NCBI GenBank assembly: GCA_963816185.1
Contig: CAWFJJ010000014.1
Span: forward strand, 1 to 45,538
Reading direction: 5' to 3'
DNA: 45,538 nt
Source of the DNA: Thermoanaerobaculia bacterium
GTDB lineage: Bacteria; Acidobacteriota; Thermoanaerobaculia; UBA5066
Below the pieces are notes generated by a model. It was not told the DNA's origin, ran no database searches, and was given only the letters and a program-made list of their open reading frames with translations. Each line of letters opens with the position of its first letter. The stretch's first letter is position 1. This document shows, piece by piece, positions 3,901-42,001 of this stretch. The position numbers were made by a program, and so were the translations under genes.

Positions 3901-4638
3901 ATGGTACCGCCGTCGCCGCCTTCGGATCGCATCGCGGTCATCGTCCCCGTGGCGGCCGGCGAAGGTCTCCCACCGGGGATTTTCTTCGAGAGGGTTCTGG
4001 CAGCGGAGGGACCCGTTTCGCTCGTCGTCGCGGCAGATTCGGAGATTTCTTCGAATGTGTGTGAGGCCTTCTCTCGTGCAGGGGCTCGTATCCACCGGTC
4101 GCACGCGGCGCGCGGACAGCGCCTACGCGAGGCGGCCCTCTTCACCTTCAAAGAATCGTCTTCTTCCTCTTCTTCTTCCTCTTCAGCAGACATCTTCCTC
4201 TTTCTTCACGCCGACACGCTGCTGCCCGCCGGATGGGAGCGGGCGATCCGCCGCGCGATCACCTCGCGGGCCGTCGGCGGCGCGTTCCGGCTGTCTTTCT
4301 CCGGCGGCGGCGCGCGCATGCGGTGGGTCGCATTCTGGGCGAATGCCCGCACGGCGTTCACGCACGTTCCTTACGGCGACCAGGCTCCGTTCGTGAGGCG
4401 CGACGTCTACGAGAAGCTCGGCGGCCATCCGCCCTGGCCGCTCCTCGACGACTGGGATTTCGCGAGGAGGCTCAAGAAAGAAGGGAGCATCGAGATTCTC
4501 CGGGACGCGGTGGAAACCTCCCCGCGACGTTACCTCGAGCGCGGCGTCGCACGGACCGTCTGGAAGAACTGGAAGACACTTTGGCGCTTCAGGCGAGGAG
4601 CGAGCCCCGAAGAGGTCGCAAGGAACTACAGGAAGTAG
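3901..4638 (+). CDS. GT2 glycosyltransferase, TIGR04283 (rSAM/selenodomain-associated) type, with poly-Ser insert
   Basis: RGQRL, FLHADTLLP, GGAFRL, PYGDQ, TSPRRY motifs; start uncertain. Confidence 0.8.
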   Translation: MVPPSPPSDRIAVIVPVAAGEGLPPGIFFERVLAAEGPVSLVVAADSEISSNVCEAFSRAGARIHRSHAARGQRLREAALFTFKESSSSSSSSSSADIFLFLHADTLLPAGWERAIRRAITSRAVGGAFRLSFSGGGARMRWVAFWANARTAFTHVPYGDQAPFVRRDVYEKLGGHPPWPLLDDWDFARRLKKEGSIEILRDAVETSPRRYLERGVARTVWKNWKTLWRFRRGASPEEVARNYRK

Positions 4639-4651
4639 ACGCCTTTCCGTA

Positions 4652-6151
4652 TTAGGGATCAGCGGGGGACTCTCGATTTGACGGCGACACGGCGCCGCCG
4701 GGCCCGATCCGGCGCCAGGACCCGATGGAGCCGGCACGCCCGACATTCTCCGAGTGCTCCGTCAGGAAGCGGTAGAGCGCGCTGCTCCGAACCTTCTCTT
4801 GGGCGGGGCCGGGCTCGCGGAACAGAACGAGACTCCCTTGGGCCCTCGAGAGCCCCTCGACCAGCCTCTGGTCGAGGCCGTCCTTGTTGAGGACCCACGA
4901 GATCCCAACGCTCAGGTGTGGACTGGCGCTCGGGAAGGTTCCCGTGAGCGCGTAGATGCTCTCCCTGGCCGCCAGGAAATTGAAGAATCGCCCCCCGGGC
5001 TCAATCCGTTCCCGGACGACGCGGACCTCGTTTTGGGTCGCCTTGTCGTCCCACCAGAGAGCCGGTCCCCCGACGTGATCCAGCGCCACCGGGCCGGTGT
5101 CCGCGAGGAGGATGATCGCCTGAACGGCCAGCAGCCCGCCGCCAGTTCCCATCAGAAGCAGCAGACGCGGGCGCCGCCGCCGCCGGCCGGTGCGCCCGAG
5201 GACGGGACGAAGGACCTGAATACTTCGCCCGGCGGCAAGGGCAGCGAGCACCGGGACCGCGCCAAAGTGGGCGATGCCCCAGCGCGGGAGCGCCATCATC
5301 GCGAGGGTGCCGGCGATCAACGGCAGCGGGGACGCGAGCCGGGCGGCGGGGAGAAGGCCGCGGACGACGGAGAGGGCAGCGACGGAGAGGAAGAGGATCA
5401 ACGGCTGGAGGAGCTCATCCCACGAGGGGAGCGAGCCGGCTTCGCGTGCGTAGCTCGAGAAGAGAGGAATCGTAAGCGTCCAGCGAATGTGCGCGGTCGT
5501 GCCGAAGACGAGGCCCCAGCAGGCCGCGAACGCAAGATAGGGAACCGCACCGGCCAAAGTGAGAGCCACCGCGGACCGGCGCGAGCACCGCCGGCTCGCC
5601 AGAACGAGCCACGCGAGGGCGCCGACGAGAGCCCACGCTGCGGTTTGCTTGACGAGGACCGCCGACCCCAACGCGAGGCCCGACAGGATCAGGGAACGGT
5701 CGTCGCCTCGCCGCTCGAACGTCTCGAGCCCGAGGACTGCGGCGGCGACGAAGGGCGCCGCGAGGGGCTCCTGCCAGAGGGCCGGCCCTTCGCACAAGAC
5801 AGTCATGACCATCAGCAGGAGGAGCCCGACCGCGAGCGCTGCGACGTCGCTCGCCTTCCATCCGCGTCGCCGCCGCAGTCCGAGGGCGACGAGGGCGCCG
5901 CAGGCCGCGAGCGGCAGGGCGATGGCGGTTCTAATCATCGCGGTGTCGAACGACATCGCCCTACCGAGAGCGGCCACGAGGACGAGCTGGCCCGGGGTCT
6001 TCTCCATGAAGACGGAGTCGTACAGGCGCCACCCATGCGCCATCAGATAACCCGCATTGACGATCTCCGGCCACGCGATCACGGCCAGGACGTACGCCGG
6101 CAGTGCCGAGAGGAGGGCTGCCGCGAGGGCGATGCGGATTGTTGCCGCCAT
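4652..6151 (-). CDS. Polytopic membrane protein, probable GT-C (ArnT/PMT-like) glycosyltransferase
   Basis: Many TM segments; LYDSVFMEKTPG and LVKQT motifs typical of GT-C proteins. Confidence 0.65.
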   Translation of the reverse strand: MAATIRIALAAALLSALPAYVLAVIAWPEIVNAGYLMAHGWRLYDSVFMEKTPGQLVLVAALGRAMSFDTAMIRTAIALPLAACGALVALGLRRRRGWKASDVAALAVGLLLLMVMTVLCEGPALWQEPLAAPFVAAAVLGLETFERRGDDRSLILSGLALGSAVLVKQTAAWALVGALAWLVLASRRCSRRSAVALTLAGAVPYLAFAACWGLVFGTTAHIRWTLTIPLFSSYAREAGSLPSWDELLQPLILFLSVAALSVVRGLLPAARLASPLPLIAGTLAMMALPRWGIAHFGAVPVLAALAAGRSIQVLRPVLGRTGRRRRRPRLLLLMGTGGGLLAVQAIILLADTGPVALDHVGGPALWWDDKATQNEVRVVRERIEPGGRFFNFLAARESIYALTGTFPSASPHLSVGISWVLNKDGLDQRLVEGLSRAQGSLVLFREPGPAQEKVRSSALYRFLTEHSENVGRAGSIGSWRRIGPGGAVSPSNRESPADP

Positions 6152-6173
6152 GCCCCTATCCCCGTCTGCGTCC

Positions 6174-7376: not shown

Positions 7377-7423
7377 GTTCTTTGTCCTTTCGGAATCCCG
7401 GCCGGCGCCGCGGCCGCTCGGCA

Positions 7424-8797
7424 TCAATTGTACCGGGAAGCGCCCGGGCCGCCGGCCGGCGAGCCTCCGTCGAGACGGAACCCCTTGAAGGGATGATCCG
7501 CGAGGACGGACCTCTTGCCGATTTCCTTGACGAGGGTCTTCAGAAAGCCCTCGAACTGGTGCGCGGCCGGCAGGAAAGACCTCGGAGGCCTCTCGCGGGA
7601 GAAGCCGGCGAGGAAGCGCTCGAACAGCGACCAGTCCTTGAACATGAGGTGGCGCATCCCGCTCCGGCGGAAGGACTCGAGCTCGGCCACGAGAGGCCGC
7701 AGCGACTTCTTGTCGGGCGCTTTCACGAAATCATGAGTCGCTTTCACGAGCTGAGAGAGCTCGTCTCTCAGGACGAGGCTCTGGTCGAGACGCGTCCGGT
7801 ACTCGGGGAAGAGCGAGCGCTCGTCGAGCCCCGACGAAAAGGTCTCGGCAAGCGAGATGACGCTCTGCTGGTAAAGGTCGCGCACGAGGGCGGCCGCATC
7901 CTCGAGGCGCGTGAGGACGAGAGCCGGATCCTTCATGAGAACGACGTCGACGAGCTCGACGTCCATGACTTTCTTCACTTCCGCCTCGAGCGCGGCCACG
8001 ATGCGCCCCAGCCCGGCGGCCTGGGGCGATCCTTCCGGGAAGCGTGGCGCGAGGCGCTTCGAGATGAACGAGGCGATGGACTCGCTCTCTCCTTTGAGGA
8101 GGCTGAAGACGAGAAGAGCGCGGGTGCGCGTGGCGGGCGACTCGGCGGCGGTGCGTGCTCGGTCCGCGTAGCGCAGCCCCTTGAAGAGCGCCACGAAAAG
8201 CGCCGCCAGCGCGCCCCGGTGCGAAGGCTCGGGCAGGCTCTCGAGCACCCGGCCCAGCGATTGTTTCGACTCCTTGTCGAGAACCGGCCGCAGGTTCTCG
8301 CGGAACAGGATGCCGAGATTGGGGTCCTGCCGGAGCGTGCCGACCACGATCCGCCCGAGCGACAGGTACGTCTGGAGCGCGACGAAGGGCGCGCGCGCGA
8401 GCTCGTCGAGAATCTTCGCGAAATCCTCGAGCTTCTCGACGACGAGCGCGAGCTCCGTCTCGGCGTTTCCGCGGCGGCGCGCGGGCATCTCGCCGCTGCC
8501 AGTCCGCGCGACCTGGCTGTCGAGGTACACGAGGAACGACGCGAGGTCTTCCTTGCCTTCCCCGAGGAGCTGCGTCGTGAGCATCGCCATGTGGGCGACG
8601 CCGGCGCGCACGGCGCCCACCTCCTCCACGTAATTCTTGAGCGACGCGTGCGAACGCTCGAAGGCCGAGAGCGGAAGGCAGTCGACCTGGAAGAACCGCT
8701 CGAGGCCTTTCAGCCACATCTCCATCTCGAACAGATAGTCGTACTTGACCCGGTTCGAGAAGAGGGCCGAGGTCTCGAGAACCGTGAAGCGGGGCAT
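7424..8797 (-). CDS. Hypothetical alpha-helical cytoplasmic protein (457 aa)
   Basis: Long ORF with host-like codon usage; TAGAAT -10 5 nt upstream; no family recognised. Confidence 0.8.
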
Positions 8798-8817
8798 GAA
8801 TCATTCTAAGCCCGGGC

Positions 8818-11616
8818 TCAGAACGGATAGCCGACGGAAAACGCGAAAGCTCCGGCGTCCTCGCCACTCTTGCGGTCGAGCTTCAGCCCGTACTCGAGGC
8901 GAATCGGGCCGACCGGCGTCTGATAGTGAAGGCCGAGCCCGGCTCCGGGCCGGAGCTGACTCAAGGTCACGCTGTTCGGATCGGCCCAGACCTGGCCGAT
9001 GTCGAAGAAGAGAGCCGCCTCGAATCCGCTCGCGACCGGGATGCGCCACTCGGCATTCGCGACGAGCTCCGCCGTCCCCCCTTCGCCCACGCCGTCGGCG
9101 TTCAGAGTCTCCCCCGGGATTCCGAGATTGTCGCGTGAAAAGGCGCGATGGGTGGACGATCCGCCCGCGAACAGCCGCTCCGGGACGGGCACGATGAGGT
9201 TCGGCGAGCACGTACCGGTCGCCTGAAGCTCGGGAGGGCACGCCTGGTGGTTCCAGATGATGCCGCCGCGGGCCGAGAAGACCAGCCGCGTCGTCCCGTA
9301 CGGCCGATAGAGCGCGGCCTGGAGCAGGGCCTTGACGAAGTCCGCGTCCGCCACGAGGTAGGGAAAGGCGTACTTGACGTCCGCGGCGACGAATGTGCCC
9401 GAGCGCGGGTTCAGCGGGTCGTCGCGCCGGTCCCAGGTCACGCCGCCCGCGACCGAGCTGATACGGCTCGGCTGGTTCGCGCGCTGGTCCGCGCCGAGCC
9501 CGGGGTCGGAGCTTGGATCGACGAGCTCGTACTGGTAGCGCAGGCCCGTGCGCAGAGAGGTCGAGGGGCGGTACTCCACCTGAAGGAAGGCTCCCGTTCG
9601 CTTCACGAGGATGGCCGAGAAGAAGTCGTTCGTCCGGTACGCGGCCACGGAGACCGGAACGAGGCCGCCGAACAGCGACCGGTCCCGCGCCGAGAGGATG
9701 ACCCTCGGGTCGCGGTTCGAGATGCGCCCTTCCCCGCTCACCTCGAGGGCGCGACCGAAGAGATTGTTGTACGACACTCCGAGCGAAAGGCGCGCCGAGA
9801 GGTCGGTGCCGGGTGACTGCGGCTGGTATTCCGCGCCGATTCCGTACGTGATGCTCCACGGACGCGCTTCGGAGACGGTGACGACCACCGCCCGCGAGCT
9901 GGTCTCCGGGTCGGTTGGGAACGTCGAGACCTCGATCTTCTGGAAGATGCCGAGGCGCGCGAGGTTCTGCTGCGTCTCGAGGAGCTTCGTGAGCGAGAAA
10001 GGCGAGCCTTCTTTGTTCGCGAGGCGGTCCTCCACGATGAAGGGCCGCGTGCGCCGGTAGCCGCGCAGAATCGTCTTGCCGAAGGTTACGGGTTGGCCCT
10101 CGGTCACGAGGTACGTCACCTCCGCCCGCTCTCCCTCCGGCGGCACCGGGTCCCGAAAACGCACGGACGATTCCACCTTCGCGTCCACGTACCCCCGATC
10201 CACGTAGAGGGACTGCAGGAGAGCCGCGTCGTCGCTGACCGTGGACTCCGAATACGGGAGGCCGGCCTTGACGGCGAGCCGCGGCAGGAGGACGTCCTCG
10301 GGCACCGTCTTGATGCCCGCCACGGTGCGCGACGCGACGATCGTCCGGAGCCCTTCCTCGACCTTGAACGTCACGTCGAGCGTGTCCCGTGAAGCGCCGT
10401 CCGTCACGGCCGGGGGCGCGACTCTCGCGAACCGGAACCCCCTGGCGCGATAGAGCGCCTCCAGGGCGTCGCGATCCGCAGCCGCATCTTCATCCACGTA
10501 TCGGCCGGAATCGAGGAGGCCGCGCGGGCGCATCTGGAGCGCGCCGAAGGCGTCCTTCGGTGGCAGGCTGGCGGCGCCGACGACCTTCACGGACGAGATC
10601 GTCCACCGCTCCCCTTTCTCGATCGAGAACGCCACGAGCTCCTCATCGGCCGTCGTTTCGAACGTGACGTCCACCTTCGCCCGCGCGTAGCCTTTTTCCT
10701 GATACGTGCGGCGGAGCCCGTCTTTCAAGACCTGAAGAGAGTCTTCGTCCGAAGGCTCGCCGCGCGTCCAGGGTGAGTCGGGGTGCGCGCGCACGACCTT
10801 CTCGCCCTCCCCCGTGACCTTCAGGACGACTCGCGGCCCGACGAAGAGAGCGTAGTGCGGCGTCACGGTCGCCGAGGCCGCGTCGTACTGCTCGTCGTCG
10901 AGGCGCACCTCCGCCCGCGAGTATCCGGCCCGCCGATAAGCGGTCGTGAAGCGCTCGGCGTCCTCCCGGGCCGCGGTGCCGCGATAGGGTTTGCCTTTCT
11001 TCGATTTCGCTTTCGCGAGCAGCGTCGCTTCGTCGAGGGGGCCAAGCGGGGCCGAGAAGCGGGGAGCTTCCGCCACGGCGCGCGGGCCCTTCTCCACGTT
11101 GAACCGGACGTCCACGGAGGTCTCGTCGGCGCCGGTCTCGACGGCCGTCGCGATCTTCGGATCGAAATAGCCCTCCTCGCGCAGGACACGCCGGATCTCG
11201 GACTCGTACTTCGGCTTGAGATCGCTTTGCCACGGATTGCCCGGCCCGAGTCCGATGGCGTCGAGGATGCGGCCCGCCGCGGGGACTTTGGGGGAGAGTG
11301 CGAGCCTTTCGATCCGCGGCGCCGCGGAGAAGACGACGACCACGATGGAGCCGGCGGGCGACGGCGACGCCTCGACGGCGAGGTCGGAAAAGAGGCGCGT
11401 CGCGAAGAGGTTGCGGAGGCTCGTTCGCACGGCGTCGCCCGACAGGGTGCGCCCGGGCGCGAGGTCGGTCAGGGCGGCGAGCCGGTGCTCGTCGACCGGC
11501 GCGTCGCCGCGAAACGACAGGGAGGCGATTCCCGTTCCGTAGAGCGTCTCTGCGGACCCGCGCGCCGCGACGAGGAGCGCTCCCAGGGCGAACAGGACGG
11601 CGCGGAAGGACTTCAC
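8818..11616 (-). CDS. Omp85-family outer membrane assembly protein (TamA/BamA-like, multiple POTRA domains)
   Basis: Signal peptide after GTG 11616 (GTGA overlap with tamB); POTRA GY..A repeats; FAGGSSTHRAF and TPVGPIRLEYG barrel motifs; terminal F. Confidence 0.9.
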   Translation of the reverse strand: MKSFRAVLFALGALLVAARGSAETLYGTGIASLSFRGDAPVDEHRLAALTDLAPGRTLSGDAVRTSLRNLFATRLFSDLAVEASPSPAGSIVVVVFSAAPRIERLALSPKVPAAGRILDAIGLGPGNPWQSDLKPKYESEIRRVLREEGYFDPKIATAVETGADETSVDVRFNVEKGPRAVAEAPRFSAPLGPLDEATLLAKAKSKKGKPYRGTAAREDAERFTTAYRRAGYSRAEVRLDDEQYDAASATVTPHYALFVGPRVVLKVTGEGEKVVRAHPDSPWTRGEPSDEDSLQVLKDGLRRTYQEKGYARAKVDVTFETTADEELVAFSIEKGERWTISSVKVVGAASLPPKDAFGALQMRPRGLLDSGRYVDEDAAADRDALEALYRARGFRFARVAPPAVTDGASRDTLDVTFKVEEGLRTIVASRTVAGIKTVPEDVLLPRLAVKAGLPYSESTVSDDAALLQSLYVDRGYVDAKVESSVRFRDPVPPEGERAEVTYLVTEGQPVTFGKTILRGYRRTRPFIVEDRLANKEGSPFSLTKLLETQQNLARLGIFQKIEVSTFPTDPETSSRAVVVTVSEARPWSITYGIGAEYQPQSPGTDLSARLSLGVSYNNLFGRALEVSGEGRISNRDPRVILSARDRSLFGGLVPVSVAAYRTNDFFSAILVKRTGAFLQVEYRPSTSLRTGLRYQYELVDPSSDPGLGADQRANQPSRISSVAGGVTWDRRDDPLNPRSGTFVAADVKYAFPYLVADADFVKALLQAALYRPYGTTRLVFSARGGIIWNHQACPPELQATGTCSPNLIVPVPERLFAGGSSTHRAFSRDNLGIPGETLNADGVGEGGTAELVANAEWRIPVASGFEAALFFDIGQVWADPNSVTLSQLRPGAGLGLHYQTPVGPIRLEYGLKLDRKSGEDAGAFAFSVGYPF

Positions 11617-17249: not shown

Positions 17250-18262
17250 AACGTCACGACGACCTTGAGGACGTCGCCTCCCTGCCGTGCGAGCGCGAAG
17301 GCCTCGGCGGCCCGCGCGAGAGGAACGCGGTTCGTCACGAGATCCTCGGCGCGGACAACGCCGCGCTCGAGGAGCGCGAGCGCCTCGCGGAAATCCCGCG
17401 CGCCGGAGGAGTAGGAGAAGAGCATCGCAAGGTCGCGCAGGTAAGGCAGGTGCGGCTCGACCGTCCACATCCTGCCGGGCTGAGCGGGCGAATAGAAGAC
17501 GACCCGTGCCGCGGGGCCCGCCGCGGCGAGCGCCGAGCCCACGGCGGACTCCGCAGTCGGCAGTACGAAGATGACGTCCGCGGCCGCGCGATCACCCCTC
17601 TTCACCTTCTCAGAAAGGTCCTCTTCGGGCGCCAGCACCTGATCGAAACCCAGTCGAAGGGAACGGGCTCGGCGCGCGGGATCGGGATCGCAGCCGACGA
17701 GCGTCGTTGCGCCCTTCGACTTCGCGACGAGACCGAGCATGATGCCGTTCGCGCCGAGCCCGATCACGGCGACGGAATCCCCTGCCGCAACGCGCGCCCG
17801 GCGGACGGCCTTCACGGCGCACGCGAGCGGCTCGACGAGCGCCCCGTCCTCGAAGGAAAGGGCGTCCGGGAGCCGAAAGGTGTCCGTGGCGACCGCGGCC
17901 GCCTCGACACGGACGTACTCCGCGAGGCCGCCGGGATGGAGGCGCGTCTTCTTCCATTCGGGGCACATGACGTCCTCCCCGGCGAGACAGAAGCGGCAGG
18001 CGCCGCAGGCCGCGTGGTGGTGCACGACGACGCGGTCGCCGGGCCGGAATGCCTTGACGAGCGCCCCGGCCTCGGCGACGACTCCCGCCGGCTCGTGCCC
18101 CAGGACGACCGGCGCCTTCGAGGCGACGTACCACGGCGTCGTATCGCTTCCGCAGATCCCCACGGCTTTCATCGCGACGACGATTTCGCCGGGGCCGGGG
18201 GCCGGCCTCTCCATCTCGACCACCGCGATGTCGTCGAGCGAGCGGACGAGAACGGCCTTCAC
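17246..18262 (-). CDS. Zn-dependent medium-chain dehydrogenase (sorbitol/threonine dehydrogenase-like)
   Basis: GICGSD, GHE, CGACRFC...C structural Zn site, VIGLGANG. Confidence 0.9.
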   Translation of the reverse strand: MKAVLVRSLDDIAVVEMERPAPGPGEIVVAMKAVGICGSDTTPWYVASKAPVVLGHEPAGVVAEAGALVKAFRPGDRVVVHHHAACGACRFCLAGEDVMCPEWKKTRLHPGGLAEYVRVEAAAVATDTFRLPDALSFEDGALVEPLACAVKAVRRARVAAGDSVAVIGLGANGIMLGLVAKSKGATTLVGCDPDPARRARSLRLGFDQVLAPEEDLSEKVKRGDRAAADVIFVLPTAESAVGSALAAAGPAARVVFYSPAQPGRMWTVEPHLPYLRDLAMLFSYSSGARDFREALALLERGVVRAEDLVTNRVPLARAAEAFALARQGGDVLKVVVTF

Positions 18263-19386
18263 GGGACGAGAGCCACCTTCCTCGCGGCGCCCTTCTCCAC
18301 CAGATCGAACGCCTCGCGCCATTGGGCGAGCGGCCGCCTCTCCGCCACGAGCGAGCTCACGGGGATCGCGCCTTCGGCGAGGAGCGCAAGGGCGGCATCC
18401 ACGTCGCGCGGCGTGTAGTGGAACGACCCCACGATCGACACCTCGCGATAGTGCACCGCAAAAGCGTCCACGCTCACGCGCGCGCCCTCGGGCATTCCCG
18501 CGAAGAGCAGCACGATCCCGCCGTTCGCGGCGAGCGCGGGGAGCGCTGCGATCACGTCGGGCGCGCCGGTCGTGTCGAGAATCAGAGAATATTTTGCTCC
18601 CTCTCCGCGCGTGTTTTCGATGCGTTCGGGTGAGGGCGCATCTTCTTCGAAGGTGAATAAGGTTGGCGGAGCACCGGCCCCGGTATCGCGCGACCGGCTT
18701 GCAATGCGCGCAATGCCTGCACCCCTTTCTAAGAAAAATCGGAGCTTCTCTTCTCGCCTTCCTGCGACGACGACCCGACGCTCCGCGCCGCTCGTCTCTT
18801 CTCCTCTCCCTCTTCCTCTTTCTTTCCCCCTCAAAAGAAAAAACATCATCGCCGCGATCGGGCCGGTGCCCACGATGAGAACGTTGACACCGTCTTGCGC
18901 TCCGTCGTTCGTCTTCACCCCATTCAGCGCGTGGACGACGCTCGCGAGCGGGTCCACCAGCGCGGCCGCCTCGTCGGAGAGGCCGGGCGGGATTCTCCTG
19001 AGGCCGCTCTTCACGATGCGCTCCGGGACGAGGAGGAAGTCCGCGAACGCCCCGAAGAGCGGCTTATCGAAGGCGGTCGCGCAGAGGTTCTCGCGGCCTC
19101 GCCGGCAATCGTCGCAGTGCCCGCAAGGGCTGGACACCGCCGAGGTCACACGCTCTCCGGGCTCGAAAGGCGCTCCCGGACCCGCTGCCTCGACGATCCC
19201 CGCGAACTCGTGACCGAGCGTGAGCGGAAAGGGAAACTTCGGATGACCGCGTTTGGCGATCTTGAAGTCGGTCGCGCACGTGAGCGCGACCTTGATGCCG
19301 ACGAGAACCTCTCCCGGCCCCGGAGAAGGGGTCGCGACCTCGCGGAGCGCGAGCCGCTCCGGCCCCTCGGAGACGAGAGCCCGCAT
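18259..19386 (-). CDS. Zn-dependent medium-chain dehydrogenase paralog with in-frame expansions
   Basis: TCATD, GHE, CGHCDDC...C, IVGTGPI; extra low-complexity segments at 18580-18850. Confidence 0.88.
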   Translation of the reverse strand: MRALVSEGPERLALREVATPSPGPGEVLVGIKVALTCATDFKIAKRGHPKFPFPLTLGHEFAGIVEAAGPGAPFEPGERVTSAVSSPCGHCDDCRRGRENLCATAFDKPLFGAFADFLLVPERIVKSGLRRIPPGLSDEAAALVDPLASVVHALNGVKTNDGAQDGVNVLIVGTGPIAAMMFFLLRGKERGRGRGEETSGAERRVVVAGRREEKLRFFLERGAGIARIASRSRDTGAGAPPTLFTFEEDAPSPERIENTRGEGAKYSLILDTTGAPDVIAALPALAANGGIVLLFAGMPEGARVSVDAFAVHYREVSIVGSFHYTPRDVDAALALLAEGAIPVSSLVAERRPLAQWREAFDLVEKGAARKVALVP

Positions 19387-25532: not shown

Positions 25533-26210
25533 CTAGCAGCCCGATGAAAGCGCCCGGCGCGCCTCGGCGAGGGCCGCGGCCGTCTCGGCCATCCCGCGCT
25601 CGAGGCTCTCCTGAGAGCGAAGAGAGAGAGATTCTTCGAAGGAGGAGATGGCGGCCCGAAGGTGTTCGGACCGCCGGCGGGGCTCGGCTTCGGCCAGCTT
25701 TCGGAGAACCAGTCCTCTGGCGTGGAGCGTCACCCCCCGTGCGACGCGGCGCGTCGCGTCGCGCACGGTGAGGGCGTGTTCGTAGGAGGCAAGAGACTCT
25801 TCGAGATCGTCCGGCGAGCGCGCGAGATTCTGGAGGGCGTTGCCGCGGTTATGCCAGGTTCTCGCCCACGCCTCCAGGTCACCCCCGGGGCCAGCGGCGT
25901 TGAAGGATTCTTTGAATAGAGAGAGCGAGAGTTCGAGACTTTCCGAAGGGCCGCGCGAGCCGAAGAACACCGCGAGGTTGTGCAGGAACGTCGCCTCTTC
26001 CCCTTTCGAAGAAAAAACCAGCGTTTCCCGCATGCTCCAAAGGTCGCTCGCGAGCGCACGAGCGGTCTCCTCCGACTCTTCCCGTCTCTCACGGTCGTCC
26101 CGCAGGTGCTCCTGCAGCACGTACCAGTCGCGAAACGCGGCACGCGGATCCTCCGCGAACCGCCGGCGGAAGGTCGCGACGAGATCCCGGGACGGAGGGA
26201 GAGCGCTCAG
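25533..26210 (-). CDS. TPR-like hypothetical protein
   Basis: HNLAVF, WARTWHNRGNALQ, TLHARGLVL TPR-type helices; probable CTG start overlapping cysK stop. Confidence 0.7.
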   Translation of the reverse strand: MSALPPSRDLVATFRRRFAEDPRAAFRDWYVLQEHLRDDRERREESEETARALASDLWSMRETLVFSSKGEEATFLHNLAVFFGSRGPSESLELSLSLFKESFNAAGPGGDLEAWARTWHNRGNALQNLARSPDDLEESLASYEHALTVRDATRRVARGVTLHARGLVLRKLAEAEPRRRSEHLRAAISSFEESLSLRSQESLERGMAETAAALAEARRALSSGC

Positions 26211-28215: not shown

Positions 28216-28235
28216 GTCCTCACACCGATTTCGTT

Positions 28236-28814: not shown

Positions 28815-28834
28815 TTGGCGAAAGCGTATGGGGG
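28815..28834 (-). repeat. Degenerate copy of tRNA-Sec 3' end (att-like scar)
   Basis: TTGGCGAAAGCGTATGGGGG vs TTGGCGGAAGCGTGTGGGGG at 29773-29792: 18/20 identical, direct orientation. Confidence 0.75.
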
Positions 28835-28861
28835 CTAAGCTGACGGAACGGAAGAAAAGAG

Positions 28862-29746
28862 ATGAACGTTCCCGAAAACGACCCGAACGAGCCCCGCTCG
28901 GTCACCCTGCTGCTGCATTGTCCCCTCCGTCTCGGTCTCGCCGCCGGCCTGACCCAGTTCATTTACGCCAACGGAGGGCGCATCCTCTACCACGAGCAGT
29001 ACGTCGACACCGAAAGTGACCATTACTACACGCGCCTCGAGTGGGATGTCTCGAGCTTCTCCGCGACGGACGCGGAAATGGCTGAGCGCCTCCGAGCCCT
29101 CATTGGCAGCGGGCCTGAGACCGAGTGGTCGCTCCACAACTCGGACCAGGTCCTTCGCATGGCCGTCTTCGTATCGAAGGATCCCTGGTGTCTCTACGAC
29201 ATCCTCGCGCACAGTCACTCCGGAGAATGGACGGTCGAGGTACCGGTCATCGTCAGCAACCACTCCGACCTCGAGCCCGTGGCGAGGAGGTTCGGCGTCG
29301 AGTTCCGCAGCTTTCCCGTCACGAAGGAGAACAAGAGCGACGTCGAAGACGAGCAGCTGGCCCTCCTTCGCAGCCATCGGATCGACGTCGTCGTCCTCGC
29401 GCGGTACATGCAGATCCTGACGGGCCGGTTCGTGAAGGCGTATCCGAAAAGCGTGATCAACATCCACCACGCCTTTCTTCCCGCCTTCCCGGGGGCTCGC
29501 CCGTACCACTCGGCCCGTGAGCGGGGTGTCAAGATCATCGGAGCCACGAGCCACTACGTGACCGAGACGTTGGATGCCGGGCCCATCATCGAGCAGGACG
29601 TCTTGCGTGTGACGCACCGGCACTCGGTGCGGGACCTGATCCGCTCCGGGCGGGACCTCGAGAAGGTGGTCCTCTCACGGGCCATCAGGAGCCACATCGA
29701 GCGAAAGATCATCGTTCACAAAGGCCGCACGGTCGTATTCCACTAG
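28862..29746 (+). CDS. purU: Formyltetrahydrofolate deformylase
   Basis: ACT-like N-terminus, VLARYMQIL, INIHHAFLPAFPGARPY, GATSHYVT. Confidence 0.95.
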   Translation: MNVPENDPNEPRSVTLLLHCPLRLGLAAGLTQFIYANGGRILYHEQYVDTESDHYYTRLEWDVSSFSATDAEMAERLRALIGSGPETEWSLHNSDQVLRMAVFVSKDPWCLYDILAHSHSGEWTVEVPVIVSNHSDLEPVARRFGVEFRSFPVTKENKSDVEDEQLALLRSHRIDVVVLARYMQILTGRFVKAYPKSVINIHHAFLPAFPGARPYHSARERGVKIIGATSHYVTETLDAGPIIEQDVLRVTHRHSVRDLIRSGRDLEKVVLSRAIRSHIERKIIVHKGRTVVFH

Positions 29747-29773
29747 GTGCTCGCGGTTCTTCGCGAGGGTGAT

Positions 29774-29872
29774 TGGCGGAAGCGTGTGGGGGTCGAACCC
29801 ACCCGCCGCCCCTCTCGGAACGGGCACGCTGGTTTTGAAGACCAGGAGGGCCGCCGGGCCCCTTGCGCTTCC
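29774..29872 (-). tRNA. selC: tRNA-Sec (anticodon UCA)
   Basis: GGAAGCG...CGCTTCC-GCCA acceptor, 6-bp D stem, CTGGT-CTTCAAA-ACCAG anticodon arm, long variable arm, GTGGG-TTCGACC-CCCAC T arm; TAGAAT -10 upstream. Confidence 0.95.
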
Positions 29873-29924
29873 GCGGCGGATTCTATCGGCACGTCTTCCA
29901 TGATCGGGAATCGCGTGGCCGGGG

Positions 29925-29952
29925 TCATCCGGTCCTGCCGGTCATTCCGTAA
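29925..29952 (+). promoter_or_regulatory. Putative ECF (SigK-like) promoter of the DUF4331 operon
   Basis: TCATCC-N16-CCGTAA; near copy precedes the ECF sigma gene. Confidence 0.6.
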
Positions 29953-30047
29953 GAGGCTCCAGATGTCAGCCGTGCTGACCGCCAGAAGCTCTTAGATCGA
30001 TCGCCGAACGGAACGAACCACTTTCGAATCGCCGATAAGGAGATTTC

Positions 30048-31688
30048 ATGTCCAAAACGGGAGAACTGCGCCTTCGCAGCCTGGTCACGGCCGGAATTCT
30101 CGCGGCCGCCGCGCTCCTCGCGCCAGGGGTCGTGCTCGCGTCCAGCCACAACGAGGCCCCCTTCACGTCCAAGAACCCCAGCCTCGACGACACGGATTTC
30201 TACATGTTCCGCGACCCGAACGACCCCTCGATGGTGAACCTCATCGCGTGCCGCTACGGGCTCATCGAGCCGCAGGGCGGCCCGAACTACGCGGGCTTTC
30301 AGGACGGCGCCTGGTACGACATCAAGATCGACAACAACGGCGACGGGGTGGAGGACGTGACCTTCCGGTTCACGTTCAGGACGACGTACAAGCAGCCCTC
30401 GACGTTCCTGTACGCGGTGCCGCCCGTGGCGTCGATCACGGATCCGAACCTCCTCGTCGTCCAGACGTACAGCCTGGACAAGATCACGGGACCCGCGGGG
30501 AACCCGTCTCCGAGCCAGATCACGCGCATCCTCACGGACCAGCCTGTCTTCCCCCCGAACATCGGATCCAAGACGTTCCCGGATTACGTGAACATTCCGA
30601 ACGGCATCCAGAAGAGCGCGGACGGCAAGATCTCCGTCTTCACCGGACCCCGCCAGGATCCCTTCTTCGTGGACCTCGGCATGGTCTTCGACGGCATCAA
30701 CCTCGAGACCGGCGCGGGTCTCGGGCGGCCCGGAGTGGGTGTCGGCGCTACGGGTGGCGGCCGCGACACGCTCTTCGGATACACGGTTCTCGCAACGGAG
30801 CTCCAGGTTCCCATCGCGCAGCTCACGTCCGTCGGCTTCCAGGTCGGCGACCCCGCGAACTCGGTCGCCGTGATCGGGGGCTGGGCCTCGGTCAGCATTC
30901 CCGCCTCCCGCACGATCAACGCCGACGGCTCGGTCACGAACAGCGGCGCTTACGTTCAGGTGTCGCGCCTCGGCAATCCGCTCGTGAACGAGGTCCTCGT
31001 CGGCGTCGGCCGCAAGGACTTCTGGAACACACAGCCGCCCGCGGCTGAGGCGCAGTTCAAGGGCGACGCGTCGAACCCGGGCGAGCTCTTTCCGATTCTC
31101 GCGACCTACATGAACGTGCTTTTCGGCATCAACGTTCCGCCCGGCCCCCGCTCGGACATCGAGCTCGCGCTCTTCCGCGGGATCGGGCCCGGAAACCCCT
31201 TCGGCGTCCCGATCAACACGCACCCGGGAGAGGTGTACGCGGACGAGCTGAGGCTCAATACGGCCGTCACGCCGACGCCTTTTTCGAGCGCGAGCCGGCT
31301 TGGTTATCTCGGCGGCGACGTCGCGGGCTTCCCCAACGGCCGCCGGCCCTGTGACGATGTCGTCGACATCGAGCTGCGCGTCGTAGCGGGAGTGTTTCAG
31401 GGAGGGGCGTACGGCGGCGCGCCGAACAATCTCCTCGGCGACGGCGTGGACTTCCCGGAGCGGGGCTGCCGATACTTCTTCCCCTTCATGTGGTCGCCCA
31501 CGAGCGGCTTCGCGGCATTCCACGCGGGCCCCGCGCAGCCCACGCACAGCGCTCAGGTCAAGGCGATTCGCGACAGCAACGTGAAGGGGTTCCCCGAGGG
31601 CATCTCCGACGAGGAGTTCGCCGAGCGCGTCCGCATCGCGCGCGATCACGACGACCTCGCGAAGATCCAGCCCGCGAGCGTCAAGTAA
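30048..31688 (+). CDS. DUF4331 family secreted protein
   Basis: Signal peptide then SSH.EAP, D.TDFYMF, GPRQDPFFVDL, QVSRLGNPLVNE, GFPNGRR..DDVVDI; AAGGAG RBS. Confidence 0.9.
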   Translation: MSKTGELRLRSLVTAGILAAAALLAPGVVLASSHNEAPFTSKNPSLDDTDFYMFRDPNDPSMVNLIACRYGLIEPQGGPNYAGFQDGAWYDIKIDNNGDGVEDVTFRFTFRTTYKQPSTFLYAVPPVASITDPNLLVVQTYSLDKITGPAGNPSPSQITRILTDQPVFPPNIGSKTFPDYVNIPNGIQKSADGKISVFTGPRQDPFFVDLGMVFDGINLETGAGLGRPGVGVGATGGGRDTLFGYTVLATELQVPIAQLTSVGFQVGDPANSVAVIGGWASVSIPASRTINADGSVTNSGAYVQVSRLGNPLVNEVLVGVGRKDFWNTQPPAAEAQFKGDASNPGELFPILATYMNVLFGINVPPGPRSDIELALFRGIGPGNPFGVPINTHPGEVYADELRLNTAVTPTPFSSASRLGYLGGDVAGFPNGRRPCDDVVDIELRVVAGVFQGGAYGGAPNNLLGDGVDFPERGCRYFFPFMWSPTSGFAAFHAGPAQPTHSAQVKAIRDSNVKGFPEGISDEEFAERVRIARDHDDLAKIQPASVK

Positions 31689-31695: not shown

Positions 31696-32955
31696 GTGAA
31701 ACCTCTGCGGCGGCGGCTTTCGCTCCTTCTTCCCGCAAGAGCGGCGGCCGCCGTTCTTCTCATCGCCCTTGCGGCGCGGGCTTCCGAAGCCGGAGAGAAG
31801 AAGCCCGGCCCGGTCGCGCTCGCCGAAGAGCGCTACGCGCGTTACCGCCGGACGCTCGACCGCGCCGATCTCGCCGCTTCCGAGGCGGCCGTGGCGAAAG
31901 GCCTTCTCGCCTCGCCCGGCGACTTCGGCCTCCTCAAGTTCCGGCTGAGGCTCCTCCTTCCCCACCACCTCTTCGAGGAGCTGGCTCGCGAGGCCGCCGC
32001 GCTGAAGGCGGAACGGCCGGACGACCCGGATCTGGACGGCGCTCTCGGGGACGCGTTCTTCGACCTGGGCCGCTACCCGGAAGCCTTCGCGGAATACGAC
32101 CGTTTCGTAACCGCGAAGCCCTGCACGGCCTCGTACAGCCGCGCCGCGCTCGGGAAGGACGTCGCGGGCGACCTGGCCGGCGCGCTCGCCGCGATGGATC
32201 TCGCCGCGAACGCCGCCCTGCCCACCGACCTCGAAGGTTACGCGTGGTGCCGGGCGCGCGCCGCGCGGATCCTCCTCAAGATGAACCGGTACGAGGACGC
32301 GGAAGGGCGCCTCGTCGAAGCCCTCCTCCGCGTCCCGAACCACGCCCCTGCGCTCGCCGCAGCGGCGGAGATCGCGGCGCGCAAGGGACTCTGGGAGCCG
32401 GCCACGCGCCTCGCCGAGCGCTCCTTCGAGTTCGTCCCCGAGTTCACCGTTGCAGCCGCCCTCGTCGACTACCGGCACGCCATGGGAGACGCCGCAGGAG
32501 AAGAGCGCGCGAAGGCGACGGTGAAAACGCTCGAGACGCTCATGCCCGCCGAGGAGCGAAAGGTCCACCGCTTTCTCGCGCTCTATCTCGCAGACCACGG
32601 CGACGCGAGACGCGCCGTCGAGATGACGTCGAAGGAGCTGGAGACCCGCAAAGACATCGGCGGATACGACGCCTACGCCTGGTGCCTCTACCGGGCCGGT
32701 CGCGCCTGGGACGCCGCCGTGCCGATGGCCAAAGCCCTGGCGATGGGCACGGTCGACCCCCTTTTCGAGTTCCACGCCGGCGCGATCGCACGCGCCGCGG
32801 GCGATCGCCAGGCCGCGCTCGCCCATTTGACGCGCGCGCTCGAGATCGATCCGCGCTTCCACGTGCTCTATGCAGACGAAGCGAGAAGGATGAAGGAGGA
32901 GATCGAGAAAGAGATAGCCGGAGAGACGAAGAAAGAGATTTCTGCTAATGAATAA
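31696..32955 (+). CDS. Exported tetratricopeptide repeat protein (usual DUF4331 partner)
   Basis: Signal peptide, TPR helices, YDAYAWCLY and FHAGAI motifs. Confidence 0.85.
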   Translation: MKPLRRRLSLLLPARAAAAVLLIALAARASEAGEKKPGPVALAEERYARYRRTLDRADLAASEAAVAKGLLASPGDFGLLKFRLRLLLPHHLFEELAREAAALKAERPDDPDLDGALGDAFFDLGRYPEAFAEYDRFVTAKPCTASYSRAALGKDVAGDLAGALAAMDLAANAALPTDLEGYAWCRARAARILLKMNRYEDAEGRLVEALLRVPNHAPALAAAAEIAARKGLWEPATRLAERSFEFVPEFTVAAALVDYRHAMGDAAGEERAKATVKTLETLMPAEERKVHRFLALYLADHGDARRAVEMTSKELETRKDIGGYDAYAWCLYRAGRAWDAAVPMAKALAMGTVDPLFEFHAGAIARAAGDRQAALAHLTRALEIDPRFHVLYADEARRMKEEIEKEIAGETKKEISANE

Positions 32956-33787
32956 GAGAGAGCGGGACCGTATTTCCCGAATGACCGATGTCAAGGGCGT
33001 GCTTCGCGCGCCGCACAGCGGTCGCCGACCCTTGACATCGGTCATTCGGGAACAGATTTCCATCTATCGGCGGCCGCATCCGCGGCCGCCGCATATGAGA
33101 AATATGGAAGACGTTTCTCTTGTCGAGGCGGCTGCATCAGGAACAGCCTCGTTCCCCTCTTCCCTTCTAAGAAAAACTTTCTCTGTATCCGTCTTCCTCT
33201 TTTTTCTCTTCTCTTCAGCAAAGTCTCTCTCCCATCCCATGGGCAATTTCTCCGTGAACCGCTGGACGCGGCTGTCGCCGCGCGCGGGGGGCATCGACGT
33301 GACGCACGTGATCGATTTCGCGGAGATCCCGACGCAGAAGGCGCTGTCGGATTCGAGCCTGACGGGCGCGCCGCGGGGGGACGCGCTCGCGAAGATGCGG
33401 GACGACCTCGCCGCACGCTTTCTTCCGGGCCTCGTTCTCACCGTTGGAGGCGCGCGCGTCGCGCTCACCATCGTCAGGAGCGCGCTCGAGTTCGCGCCCG
33501 GAGTCGCGGACCTCCCCACCGCGCGACTGATTCTGGACCTCGAGGCGAGCGTCTCGAAGGAAGGCGTCGCGGCGGTGACGTTCTCCGACACGAACTTCGA
33601 AGGCCGCGCGGGCTGGAAGGAGGTCGTCGCGGCGGCGGGGAACGGCGCGGCTCTCCTCGCCGCCGACGTCCCCGCCACGGACCGCAGCAGGAGGCTGACC
33701 GAGTACCCGTCCGACCCTGCGGAGCCGCCGTCGGAGGTCACGAGCGCCACCCTGCGGGTCCGGTTCGGCGCGAGGCGGGCGCGATGA
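32948..33787 (+). CDS. Periplasmic domain normally found N-terminal to NicO/HoxN-type Ni/Co permeases; start uncertain (32948, 33095 or 33104)
   Basis: HPMGNFSVN, D.AEIPT, GWKEVV, S.RL..YP motifs; no permease domain follows. Confidence 0.7.
   Translation: MNKRERDRISRMTDVKGVLRAPHSGRRPLTSVIREQISIYRRPHPRPPHMRNMEDVSLVEAAASGTASFPSSLLRKTFSVSVFLFFLFSSAKSLSHPMGNFSVNRWTRLSPRAGGIDVTHVIDFAEIPTQKALSDSSLTGAPRGDALAKMRDDLAARFLPGLVLTVGGARVALTIVRSALEFAPGVADLPTARLILDLEASVSKEGVAAVTFSDTNFEGRAGWKEVVAAAGNGAALLAADVPATDRSRRLTEYPSDPAEPPSEVTSATLRVRFGARRAR
32974..33103. repeat. Palindromic two-hairpin element, copy 1
   Basis: Perfect 24-bp inverted repeat (32974-32997/33029-33052), 31-nt loop, 15-nt spacer, 10-bp hairpin (33068-33091), CATATGAGAAAT tail; homologous to 41662-41790. 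Confidence 0.9.
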
Positions 33788-38428: not shown

Positions 38429-38435
38429 AATCTGA

Positions 38436-40168: not shown

Positions 40169-40908
40169 GCCGGGCCGAACCTCTTGAACACGAAGCGGGG
40201 CACGTGCCGCATCGCGAAGCCGAGCAGCGCCCAGCGCCTGTAGACGTAGAAGACCTCGTGCCGCTTCTCGAGGCGGACCGCGATGATCCGCGCGGCCTCG
40301 TCGGCCGGCGCGACCCAGAACATTCCCGGCTTCCCCGCCGTCATCCGCGTCCCGACGTAGCCGGGCTTCACGGTGGAGACGGTCACGCCGAACGGCGCAA
40401 GCCGGTTGCGAAGGCCTTCGAGAAAAGTCGAAAGAGCCGCCTTGGAAGCGTTGTACGCGGGATTCCCCTTGCGCCCCCGGTCGCCCGCGATGGACGAGAT
40501 GGCCGCGATCTGCCCGCGCCCGGCGACCCGAAACCAGTTCGCCGCGAGGCCGAGCAGCCTCACGGCCGCGACCGCGTTGACCTCCATCGTGTCGGCGTCG
40601 AGGGCAGGGACGCTCGTGACGCCGTCGCTGTGGTGCAGGACGCCGGCGTTGTAGAGGAAGAGGTCACAGTGCCCGGTGACGGCGAGGGCCTCGCGGAACG
40701 CCGGCTCGAGCCGCGCCGCGTCCGCGACGTCGCAGACGACCCCGTTGACCGTCGCAACCGGGAAGCGCCGCCTCAGATCCGCGACGAGCGCGTCGAGCTT
40801 CTTCTCCGAGCGCCCGAGGATGGTCACCCAGAAGCCGCGCGCGGCATACACCTCGGCGAGGGCCTTCCCGAGGCCGTCGGTCGCGCCGACGAGGATCACC
40901 CTCTTCAC
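40165..40908 (-). CDS. SDR oxidoreductase, DprE2-like
   Basis: GATDGLG, SSIAGDRGR, YNASK, KPGYV.T. Confidence 0.88.
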   Translation of the reverse strand: MKRVILVGATDGLGKALAEVYAARGFWVTILGRSEKKLDALVADLRRRFPVATVNGVVCDVADAARLEPAFREALAVTGHCDLFLYNAGVLHHSDGVTSVPALDADTMEVNAVAAVRLLGLAANWFRVAGRGQIAAISSIAGDRGRKGNPAYNASKAALSTFLEGLRNRLAPFGVTVSTVKPGYVGTRMTAGKPGMFWVAPADEAARIIAVRLEKRHEVFYVYRRWALLGFAMRHVPRFVFKRFGPA

Positions 40909-40948
40909 GCCGTGTCGCTCTCTGACCGAATCTTCGCAGACGAGGCGC

Positions 40949-42001
40949 TCAGGGCCACACGGTCTCCTTCTCCTCGTGCCAGTCGTGCGTCATGTCGAGC
41001 CAGAACGCGAGGCCCGCGTGCGGTCCGAACGACGCGTAGAAGCGCGCGACGCGCGCGTCCTTCACGGCGCGGCCCCGAAACCTCAGGGTCGCGACCTTCT
41101 TGCGAGACCAGGCGTCGAGGCCCAGCTTGCGGTGCCGCCCGAGAAGCCGCCCCAGCGTGTCGGCGGCATAAGGGCCGAAGCCTTTCTCCGCGCGGATCTC
41201 CTTCTCGACCTCCTCGTCGGGAAGGTCCGGATCCTCCCAGCGCGCGAGATCCAGCTTTCCCGAGGCGACGCGCCGCGCGAACGCGGTGAGATAAGGCGCA
41301 CGGTAACCCCATTTCGCAGCGGCGAGAGAGCGCGCGGAAAGGCCCGCGACGAAGGGCGCATCCGGAAATGCCCCGCCCCGATCGAAGCGTTCGATCAGAT
41401 TGTTCACCATGAGCTTCGTCAGACCCCAGGTGCAGTTCGTCGTCGCGAGGACCTTTACGGCGTCCTCGAACAGAGTCGGCGCGCGCAGGATCCGCCCCGC
41501 CCCGCGCCGGGCGACCCACGCGAAGCGCGGGTCCCCGGCGCAGAGGGAGTGGAAAGAAGAAAGATCCGCTTTCAGATCGAGGACCCGTTCCAGCGCACGA
41601 CGAACCGAGGCCTCGGATGGAACGTCCGAAGAGAGATTTGCTTTGAAAGAGAAAGAGATCTTCCTCGGAAGGCGGGTGTCAAGGGTCTTCGACCGCTTCG
41701 CGGCGCGCGCAGCGCGCCCTTGACTCCCGCCATCCGAGGACAGATTTGCTGCTATCGGCGGCTGCACAGCAGCCGCCGCATATGAGAAATCGGTCTCCCG
41801 CGCCGAAGGCGCGATGGCCCGAGCCTGAGCAACCAGTCCGCCCGGCTGCTCCGCCACCTCGACTCGTACGGGGCATTCTCCTTCTAAGAAAATCAATCCC
41901 AGGGTCTTTTCTTTCGCGTCCCATTCGAATGGAGGCAAGTCGTACCAGCCGTGGCTGCGCACCACGAGCCCGAGGTCCATCGGCGGCAGCGTGAGCATCA
42001 T
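40949..42001 (-). CDS. HhH-GPD DNA glycosylase (AlkA/Ogg-like) with in-frame palindromic insertion
   Basis: SHGW..L.PF, GAGRILRAPTLFED, TTNC.W, GYRA, GFGPYAA, LG...D.W. Confidence 0.85.
   Translation of the reverse strand: MMLTLPPMDLGLVVRSHGWYDLPPFEWDAKEKTLGLIFLEGECPVRVEVAEQPGGLVAQARAIAPSARETDFSYAAAAVQPPIAANLSSDGGSQGRAARAAKRSKTLDTRLPRKISFSFKANLSSDVPSEASVRRALERVLDLKADLSSFHSLCAGDPRFAWVARRGAGRILRAPTLFEDAVKVLATTNCTWGLTKLMVNNLIERFDRGGAFPDAPFVAGLSARSLAAAKWGYRAPYLTAFARRVASGKLDLARWEDPDLPDEEVEKEIRAEKGFGPYAADTLGRLLGRHRKLGLDAWSRKKVATLRFRGRAVKDARVARFYASFGPHAGLAFWLDMTHDWHEEKETVWP
41662..41790. repeat. Palindromic two-hairpin element, copy 2
   Basis: 24-bp arms 41662-41685/41717-41740 (2 mismatches), 31-nt loop, 15-nt spacer, 10-bp hairpin 41756-41778, CATATGAGAAAT tail. 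Confidence 0.9.

Follow-up and report, generated by a model that had tools for sequence, protein, structure and literature searches.

The 45,538-nt stretch of DNA analysed here (the window) is the entire contig C14 of a 5.09-Mb Thermoanaerobaculia genome (30 contigs, GC content 67-68%, completeness 94.9%), and it carries five patches, between positions 3970 and 41930, that share a set of short motifs. Comparing these patches with the rest of the genome and with related genomes, we find it well supported that they are copies of a dispersed two-armed DNA signal that extends through a whole genus of this lineage of the Acidobacteriota and is laid over its genes. The signal is two-fold symmetric, with two inverted arms of about 25-30 bp each. 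A unit consists, in order, of a purine tail, (GAT)TTCTTNGAA-GGTGAAGAGGGG, a centre, CCCCTCTTCACC-TTCNAAGAA(ATC) and a pyrimidine tail; the core of each arm has the form TTC-N3-GAA, being TTCTTNGAA on the left and TTCNAAGAA on the right, with GGTGAAGAGGGG and CCCCTCTTCACC as the inner flanks and a purine-rich (left) or pyrimidine-rich (right) tail as the outer flank. All five window patches match this plan. We tentatively propose, giving it somewhat less than an even chance, that the pair of arms, kept by selection, would be bound as one unit by a DNA-binding protein or complex that is itself two-fold symmetric.

When all sites in the genome are aligned in one orientation, the motif is asymmetric: its 5' side is rich in C (83% have C at position -2), the core is TTC[T/G]AAGAA-A, and at least 20 pyrimidine-rich positions follow. 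The polarity of neighbouring sites is strongly biased: at distances of 60-300 nt we counted 167 divergent neighbours (of 223 overall), against 11 convergent (of 215) and 25 same-sense (of 252). In all, 179 divergent pairs have their sites 30-400 nt apart; they are inverted and of fixed polarity and cover 358 of the 713 exact sites in the genome; at 1-5 kb there is no excess of such pairs. The separation of the arms is mostly 65-100 nt, with a mode at 74-78 nt, while the sequence of the centre is arbitrary, and 101 of 176 pairs lie within one gene. Reading frames stay open across the patches because pure purine or pyrimidine tracts cannot contain stop codons. A second spike in the spacing, at 93 nt, is due to Ser/Thr-kinase paralogues (e.g. 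C23:5304-5405 and C24:602899-620870), which all carry a divergent pair 93 nt apart within the kinase domain; the arms there read EEFFEGEE and YSFEE, likewise in other genomes of the genus.

The 713 exact sites correspond to 1.4 per 10 kb (0.14 per kb). One could suppose that there is no element at all and that the patches reflect AT-richness, codon usage, low-complexity peptides or an assembly artefact. Sites do lie in AT-richer DNA (GC content 0.634 in the 200 nt around them, 0.674 for the genome), and the assembly is not clean, in that the window is a diverged second copy of C24:139095-183165, reversed, with 84-100% identity in blocks. Nevertheless we hold this explanation to be extremely improbable. 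Dinucleotide-preserving shuffles contain 0.72 sites on average and at most 4, none of 100 reaching the nine exact sites of the window; TCTAAGAA and TTCTTAGA together have 369 copies, where the median 8-mer with six A/T has 10, and are outranked by simple runs only. Low GC content does not predict the signal, since of 1196 low-GC windows of 200 nt just 173 have a site no more than 50 nt away, and site density falls to 0.58-0.77 per 10 kb in AT-richer 10-kb bins from 1.56-1.58 in typical ones. Together with the reversed-pattern control (0-3 copies, against 21-210 in 29 independently assembled genomes of the genus) and the presence of arms at orthologous sites in 12 genomes, these shuffle, composition and orthologue controls rule out the reading that there is no element. 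The commonest AT-rich 8-mers in this genome of 67% GC are runs of eight A or eight T (1107 copies).

Exact cores already cover most recognisable arms, given that a position-weight scan adds few: at a score of 20 it found 809 arms in the genome and 178 in the reversed genome, a null that is inflated by pyrimidine tracts. A search with nhmmer and a profile of the arm gave 145 hits at E <= 0.01 and is too insensitive for a 55-nt motif. By crude, codon-based gene calls (4001 genes, 85% of the genome), 474 of the 713 sites are genic and 239 intergenic, a 2.3-fold enrichment in the 14.5% of the genome that is intergenic.

All nine exact TTCTTNGAA/TTCNAAGAA sites that the initial annotation of the window had picked out by eye are present, at 4047, 4147, 18643, 18727, 25632, 25908, 26005, 33165 and 41882, as are the three named occurrences of TTCTAAGAAAA and the two of the 15-mer TTCACCTTCRAAGAA, at 4141 (+) and 18657 (-). 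This 15-mer has 25 copies in the genome, where about 0.002 would be expected by hand estimate from independent, identically distributed bases. The density of sites in the window, 1.98 per 10 kb, is ordinary beside the genome-wide 1.4. The position-weight scan added degenerate partner arms missed earlier, at 32940 and 41639, and an extra arm at 17607. The elements of the five patches, their host genes and associated repeats are as follows, with position-weight scores for the arms.

4030..4070, minus strand: left arm of patch 1, core TTCTTCGAA at 4047-4055, score 29.0
4130..4205, plus strand: right arm of patch 1 with its pyrimidine tail, core TTCAAAGAA at 4147-4155, score 30.7
3901..4638, plus strand: host gene of patch 1, a TIGR04283-like glycosyltransferase (TIGR04283, 1.6e-45, 155 bits, below the 182-bit cut-off)
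17607..17615, plus strand: additional degenerate arm TTCTCAGAA with CCCCTCTTCACC before it, outside the five patches, score 24.0
18625..18665, minus strand: left arm of patch 2, core at 18643-18651, score 26.8
18713..18850, plus strand: right arm of patch 2, core at 18727-18735, score 26.0
18259..19386, minus strand: host gene of patch 2, a zinc-type medium-chain alcohol dehydrogenase (ADH_N 5e-23, ADH_zinc_N 4.3e-09)
25610..25650, minus strand: single arm of patch 3 with no exact partner, core at 25632-25640, purine tract before it, score 29.7
25895..26030, no strand assigned: divergent pair of patch 3, cores at 25908-25916 and 26005-26013, 97 nt apart
32926..32963, minus strand: degenerate left arm of patch 4, core-equivalent at 32940-32948, score 25.3
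32968..33106, no strand assigned: REP-like (repetitive extragenic palindrome-like) hairpin repeat between the arms of patch 4, from a family of 49 loci
33150..33238, plus strand: right arm of patch 4 with its pyrimidine tail, core at 33165-33173, score 34.6, the best in the window
41625..41662, minus strand: degenerate left arm of patch 5, core-equivalent at 41639-41647, sense SFKANLSS, score 25.8
41655..41792, no strand assigned: second copy of the REP-like hairpin repeat, between the arms of patch 5 and in-frame in the ogg-like gene
40949-42001, minus strand: host gene of patch 5, an ogg-like gene (TIGR00588, 8.5e-06, a weak match far below cut-off)
41868..41920, plus strand: right arm of patch 5, core at 41882-41890, score 24.4

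The patches had been described as lying inside five unrelated loci, which is so for patches 1, 2, 3 and 5; patch 4 runs into intergenic space, from a left arm that overlaps the final codons of a TPR gene (31696-32955, +), stop included, to a tail that reaches the ATG (33239) with which the next gene begins. Patch 1 falls in the first 100 codons of the glycosyltransferase gene. Its left arm is translated E-I-S-S-N-V and its right arm LFTFKE, after which come ten consecutive Ser. Patch 2 falls within the Rossmann domain of the dehydrogenase, whose open frame extends to 19467. On the gene sense strand its left arm, TTCACCTTCGAAGAA, encodes LFTFEE, and its right arm, pyrimidine-rich to about 18845, gives FFLER and KERGRGRGEE. 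The pair of patch 3 lies inside an open reading frame (ORF) of 195 amino acids (25533-26120, -) that matched no family in a profile search. Sixty-six nucleotides from the single arm of patch 3, the C24 copy has a partner-like TTCGAAGAA where the window has TTCGGAGAA. The right arm of patch 5 reads IFLEGE on the gene sense strand, conserved in all orthologues. The patches are AT-richer than their surroundings, as had been said of them (GC content 0.56-0.63 against about 0.69), and the coding signal in GC content at third codon positions (GC3) is lost across them; AT-richness is not peculiar to them, in that other AT-richer stretches of the window (8551-9000, 27001-30600 and 43351-43650) contain no site.

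The distribution of the sites with respect to genes is that of a signal on DNA. Genic sites are divided exactly between the sense and antisense strands (237 and 237) and are evenly placed along genes. We considered a promoter or ribosome-binding signal and rejected it, as sites favour neither an orientation nor a distance relative to gene starts. The codon phases of the window sites differ, in agreement with the initial annotation: counted by hand from gene starts, 4047 is in phase 2 and 4147, 18643 and 18727 are in phase 0. Genome-wide, cores occur in every reading frame except those that would make a stop codon. Thus TTCTAAGAA is in the stop-making frame in 0 of 80 sense and 0 of 85 antisense sites, and there TTCGAAGAA substitutes for it (76 sense, 53 antisense); intergenic sites have T as their central base in 65% of cases and genic sites in 38%.

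The dehydrogenase gives the closest view of this constraint. Twelve orthologues, with 60-80% amino-acid identity, keep both arms, and they do so with rare codons: in the arms GAA is used in 11 of 11 cases (21% in the genome), AAA in 7 of 7 (16%) and AGG in 10 of 12 (8%), and Leu is encoded by TTA or CTA, which account for 0.3% and 0.7% of genome usage. Codons next to the arms vary freely among the orthologues, and synonymous sites around the arms appear clearly scrambled despite the kinship of the sequences. In all 12 orthologues GC3 dips in the arms and tails only (0.53-0.56), with 0.83 in the centre and 0.83-0.94 in the flanks. Taken together, the alignments and strand counts show that what maintains the arms acts on the DNA sequence as such, in coding and non-coding DNA alike.

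The signal is confined to a narrow taxonomic range. The 12-mer CCTTCTAAGAAA has 149 copies in this genome and 21-210 in each of the 28 other genomes of the genus (g1), and a sister genus (g11) has 1-16 copies in seven of eight genomes. No copy was found in eight other genera of the family (26 genomes) or in two other families (12 genomes), tallies that, like the other out-family counts, include the unpublished genomes G019 and G024. The pairing is shared as well: this genome has 99 divergent and 5 convergent pairs by the pattern used for this comparison, and all 18 other genomes of the genus that were searched have 16-129 divergent against 0-6 convergent. In the open-access papers searched we found no description of this element in Thermoanaerobaculia or Acidobacteria, and the core words returned only eukaryotic STAT-type sites and unrelated uses.

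How arms came to lie inside genes was examined by sequence comparison in three genes, the glycosyltransferase, the dehydrogenase and the ogg-like gene. In the glycosyltransferase, the left arm is a length-neutral replacement of native residues, the stretch between the arms aligns residue-for-residue with the outgroups, and the right arm of the window copy is an insertion relative to them. The LFTF[EK]E arm of this gene occurs at two positions about 25 residues apart in different lineages, over differing native residues, and one genome carries two such arms. In the dehydrogenase, compared with two informative outgroups that lack the motif (L013 and L016; L014, L015 and L017 were excluded), the left arm lies over a native helix with length unchanged, and the purine tract and the region past the right arm are insertions. 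In the ogg-like gene, for which 23 of 27 loci were kept, a unit of about 100 nt occurs in full, in part or not at all among 24 aligned sequences (L020, L036, L043 and L044 were excluded for stops or several frames, L040 for two frames). Also omitted from alignment were L063 and L072, the loci from G019 and G024, and also L062 and L064 (partial or stop-containing), L070 and L071 (partial outgroups, residues 91-244 only), L073 and L074 (second pieces) and L048, which was dropped with hits in two frames. To judge from these alignments, arms inside genes come about through substitutions and short in-frame insertions, where the protein is tolerant of them, and with rare codons. Because the window duplicates the C24 region, whether the redundancy is a strain variant binned together or a large duplication, a close comparison is available within the genome itself: seven of nine sites are retained between C14 and C24, and three differences are single substitutions, gains and losses both.

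These comparisons bear on whether the arms are terminal inverted repeats of an old non-autonomous transposon family, like the miniature transposable elements with inverted repeats known as MITEs, whose genic copies persist because neither the purine and pyrimidine tracts nor the GC-rich centres hold stops. Inverted arms of fixed polarity, the sharp length mode, the intergenic enrichment of sites, the presence, partial presence or absence of the unit in ogg-like orthologues and the parts of patches that are insertions relative to outgroups are all what such a family would leave, and in-frame MITEs are known (PMC10969869). The signal is also linked to the REP-like repeat, 25 of whose 49 loci have an outward-facing arm within 250 nt, where about 1.7 arms are expected by hand estimate. 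We nonetheless doubt this explanation. The native centre and the length-neutral arm in the glycosyltransferase and the dehydrogenase are impossible by single insertion; the same arm sits at two positions of one gene across lineages; and arms are kept at orthologous sites with rare codons throughout the genus. An all-against-all comparison of 170 centres found, among the 94 non-self matches listed, no shared sequence beyond kinase paralogues, units bearing the REP-like repeat and a few duplicates, and in the columns of the 75-, 76- and 78-nt classes the centre is not conserved. Near-identical arms (more than 50 nt at 88% identity or above) formed 34 pairs, which among the clusters listed were paralogues or duplicated contigs only. 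A search for the Y1 transposase of the type associated with REP repeats (RAYT, PF01797), positive in 6 of 14 control genomes, had no match in this 95%-complete genome; other transposase families were not searched. The comparisons point to evolution in place under a directional force and not to recent transposition, as similar arms are limited to paralogues and duplicated contigs and the centres share nothing else. The suggestion in the initial annotation that the patches are landing pads of a small mobile element is not supported, given the native sequence between arms and the length-neutral replacement in two genes, and the lack of near-identical copies outside paralogues and duplicated contigs. 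The arm comparisons also brought out further duplicated pieces of the assembly, C11/C1, C13/C30, C22/C1 and C17/C30.

Two comparisons with transposon-derived repeats help to place the element. Rickettsia palindromic elements (RPEs) and in-frame MITEs are likewise small inverted-arm elements found in-frame in unrelated genes and present or absent among orthologues, but each RPE encodes a conserved peptide in the account available from PMC10969869, whereas here the arms alone are conserved, centres are unrelated or native, arms arise by substitution and there are no recent copies. The closer RPE analogue in the window is the in-frame REP-like hairpin at 41655-41792. The REP-like repeat, of about 130 nt, forms a long hairpin with compensating stem changes between copies, followed by a second GC hairpin. 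As for REPs proper, their doublets bind gyrase and integration host factor (IHF), and the doublets called REPINs are moved by RAYTs. REPs, bacterial interspersed mosaic elements (BIMEs) and REPINs resemble the present signal in being lineage-specific short repeats with hundreds of copies, often as inverted doublets, and roles in supercoiling, termination and mRNA stability have been proposed for REP repeats (passages of PMC3733652). They are extragenic and each is a hairpin; the present sites are two-thirds genic by the counts given above (474 of 713), with arms that show no co-variation and no Y1 transposase matched.

We also asked whether the two arms pair in a transcript. Such an RNA-level element, in which the 5' arm would pair with the 3' arm as a long-range stem affecting processing or translation, is in our estimation improbable. 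Whole units do fold better than shuffles (mean z -3.05 for 36 intergenic units, -2.71 for 62 genic ones), the symmetry would give a like transcript from either strand, the purine-rich 5' arm contains GAAGGTGA, which resembles a ribosome-binding site, and the plus-type arm resembles the 3' end of the genome's own 16S rRNA and the start of the spacer. But the good folding follows from the inverted consensus alone. We found no co-variation of paired arms at the 22 inner or 30 outer mirror positions or at the central base, where the two arms are unmatched: arm pairing equals the expectation for independent draws (about 0.4-0.55 at most inner positions), with scattered |z| values of up to 3 in both directions. 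The centres show no structure relative to shuffles (z about 0). Moreover, 261 patches have a single exact core, and single arms are equally sense and antisense. From the lack of co-variation and the unstructured centres it follows that a hairpin is not what is maintained. In the 16S sequence concerned, GGATCACCTCCTTTCTAAGGGATCT (C1, L075 3040-3075), 12 of the last 15 positions match the arm without gaps by hand count, and TCACC matches too with a 4-nt gap; this resemblance may be chance.

The arrangement of patches along the genome is clustered, not periodic. The initial annotation had inferred a dispersed system of cis-elements laid down about every 7 kb regardless of genes; the cis-element, the constraint on DNA and the independence of gene function stand, and the spacing does not. 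The distances between patch centres in the window are 14588, 7133.5, 7346.5 and 8717 nt, and the near-equality of these gaps is chance among four intervals. With sites no more than 600 nt apart merged, the genome has 451 patches, and the 424 gaps between them have a mean of 10.5 kb, a median of 5.9 kb and a coefficient of variation of 1.30. The gap distribution departs from the exponential toward clustering (Kolmogorov-Smirnov p = 0.0002), and its histogram falls steadily without a peak, with 28, 18 and 19 gaps at 6-9 kb where 23.6, 21.4 and 19.3 are expected. Pairwise distances between patches show no autocorrelation at 7 kb. On the eight contigs longer than 300 kb, which are unordered, we saw no density gradient, and sites are over-dispersed (0-20 per 40 kb).

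Our proposal that a protein reads the pair rests on the palindromic cores, the two-fold geometry, the lack of arm co-variation, the strand symmetry and the conservation at orthologous sites. A symmetric, sequence-specific protein or complex would contact both arms, and selection would retain the binding sites; we infer such binding, and candidate readers would be a nucleoid-associated, topology-related or recombination protein. The idea in the initial annotation of binding or loading sites for a nucleoid-organising protein may hold and comes near to this proposal. The site sets of nucleoid-associated and chromosome-organising proteins are alike in having palindromic cores, hundreds of coding and non-coding sites, no tie to gene starts and conservation among orthologues. 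To our knowledge such sets have not been reported to persist within genes where rare codons and inserted peptides are the price, or to be paired in this way.

Several observations weigh against this proposal. The spacing of the arms ranges from 50 to more than 300 nt without clear helical phasing, which is loose for one complex, and the sharp mode at 74-78 nt would also fit descent from one ancestral element. Of the 451 patches, the 261 noted above contain a single exact core, with degenerate partners found in the two window cases checked. The pattern of whole, partial and absent units in the ogg-like orthologues resembles that of an insert that is mobile or prone to deletion. Our gene calling overlooked several real genes, so that the genic and intergenic counts are approximate, and the counts over 12 orthologues and similar sets concern kin that are not independent. 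Finally, the conservation of sequence could reflect drive instead of functional selection.

By drive we mean molecular drive of the kind known from uptake sequences, where biased DNA uptake by competent cells, or biased short-patch repair or conversion, would let the motif accumulate through point mutations at any place that proteins tolerate, without serving the cell. We think this explanation unlikely, though much of the pattern fits: strands are equal, variants are adapted to frame, arms originate on the spot through substitutions, compositionally atypical DNA is poorer in the motif, and the motif is limited to one genus, with low counts in the sister genus. The genome encodes ComEC, DprA and two secretins, competence genes that do not discriminate, in that the same families match in 6-11 of 14 control genomes. 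Drive acting on single sites leaves unexplained the strict divergent pairing (99 against 5, and alike in 18 of 18 relatives) and the purine and pyrimidine tails. The three uptake-sequence species with which density can be compared have much smaller genomes. They have 765-1892 uptake sequences per genome (PMC2817400), against 0.14 sites per kb here. According to the parts of that source that bear on the point, uptake sequences are linked with preferred codons, and the arms use rare ones. The likeness is otherwise considerable: the uptake sequences of Pasteurellaceae (USS) and Neisseriaceae (DUS) are short, oriented, lineage-limited motifs in hundreds of copies, equal on both strands (portions of PMC2817400, PMC3630211 and PMC2397512). 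Many copies are coding, at poorly conserved, tolerant positions with frame biases; they are missing from atypical DNA and from genes without homologues and arise by mutation in place (PMC2817400, in part), features that the present signal shares. What sets the present signal apart is that half of its sites are in strict divergent pairs about 65-100 nt apart, with tails, and that it uses rare codons at low density. The element belongs to a broad known kind of lineage-specific dispersed oligonucleotide signals, and its paired architecture and its cost inside genes are distinctive.

If the pair is the binding unit of a protein, as we tentatively propose, a wider reading follows that we regard as possible but further from assured. 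About 450 loci per genome would be read by a protein system that organises or maintains the genome, and the signal would override codon preference, alter conserved residues and add peptide insertions to enzymes, as a recent lineage-specific layer over coding sequence. As part of this reading, its presence in the genus, incipient presence in the sister genus and absence from the rest of the family searched could mean a recent origin and a reader within reach of phyletic profiling; as sister genera differ in having the signal switched on, comparative genomics could reveal the reading factor. A protein-read signal would show cleanly, in nature, how a DNA signal spread over a genome competes with the code for proteins, at a cost measurable as rare codons, changed residues and low-complexity insertions. 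Were the patches the product of drive or of decayed transposons, the system would still be the first of its kind described for the phylum in the open-access literature searched. The signal explains odd Ser-rich and Glu/Arg/Lys-rich insertions in proteins of the genus, and also seemingly conserved peptides such as LFTF[EK]E, SSKGE and FKENLSS. It may serve as a marker when these uncultured bacteria of soil and sediment are binned and classified, and it is a caution for codon-based gene finders, as genes bearing patches were missed or cut in our own calls.

The remaining observations concern the surroundings of the patches. The glycosyltransferase gene of patch 1 starts 10 nt from a divergent MobA-like gene (3259-3891, -; NTP_transf_3), and since the two starts, at 3891 and 3901, are on opposite strands, the upstream region of each gene is inside the other. 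In public reads, the best-matching run holds 0.34 of sampled words and four runs give short contigs of relatives; read cover is thinner across patches 2 and 3, from which nothing is concluded on transcription, splicing or absence. A contig from an RNA library (run X18) joins 25591 to 26206, skipping the 195-amino-acid ORF with patch 3, and probably comes from a relative without that ORF. The lowest GC content of the window (0.51-0.54) is at 27001-27450, which is intergenic and contains no arm, and positions 27600-30600 are also under the window average. Apart from a selenocysteine tRNA gene at 29774-29872 (-), no known RNA family was found in the window.

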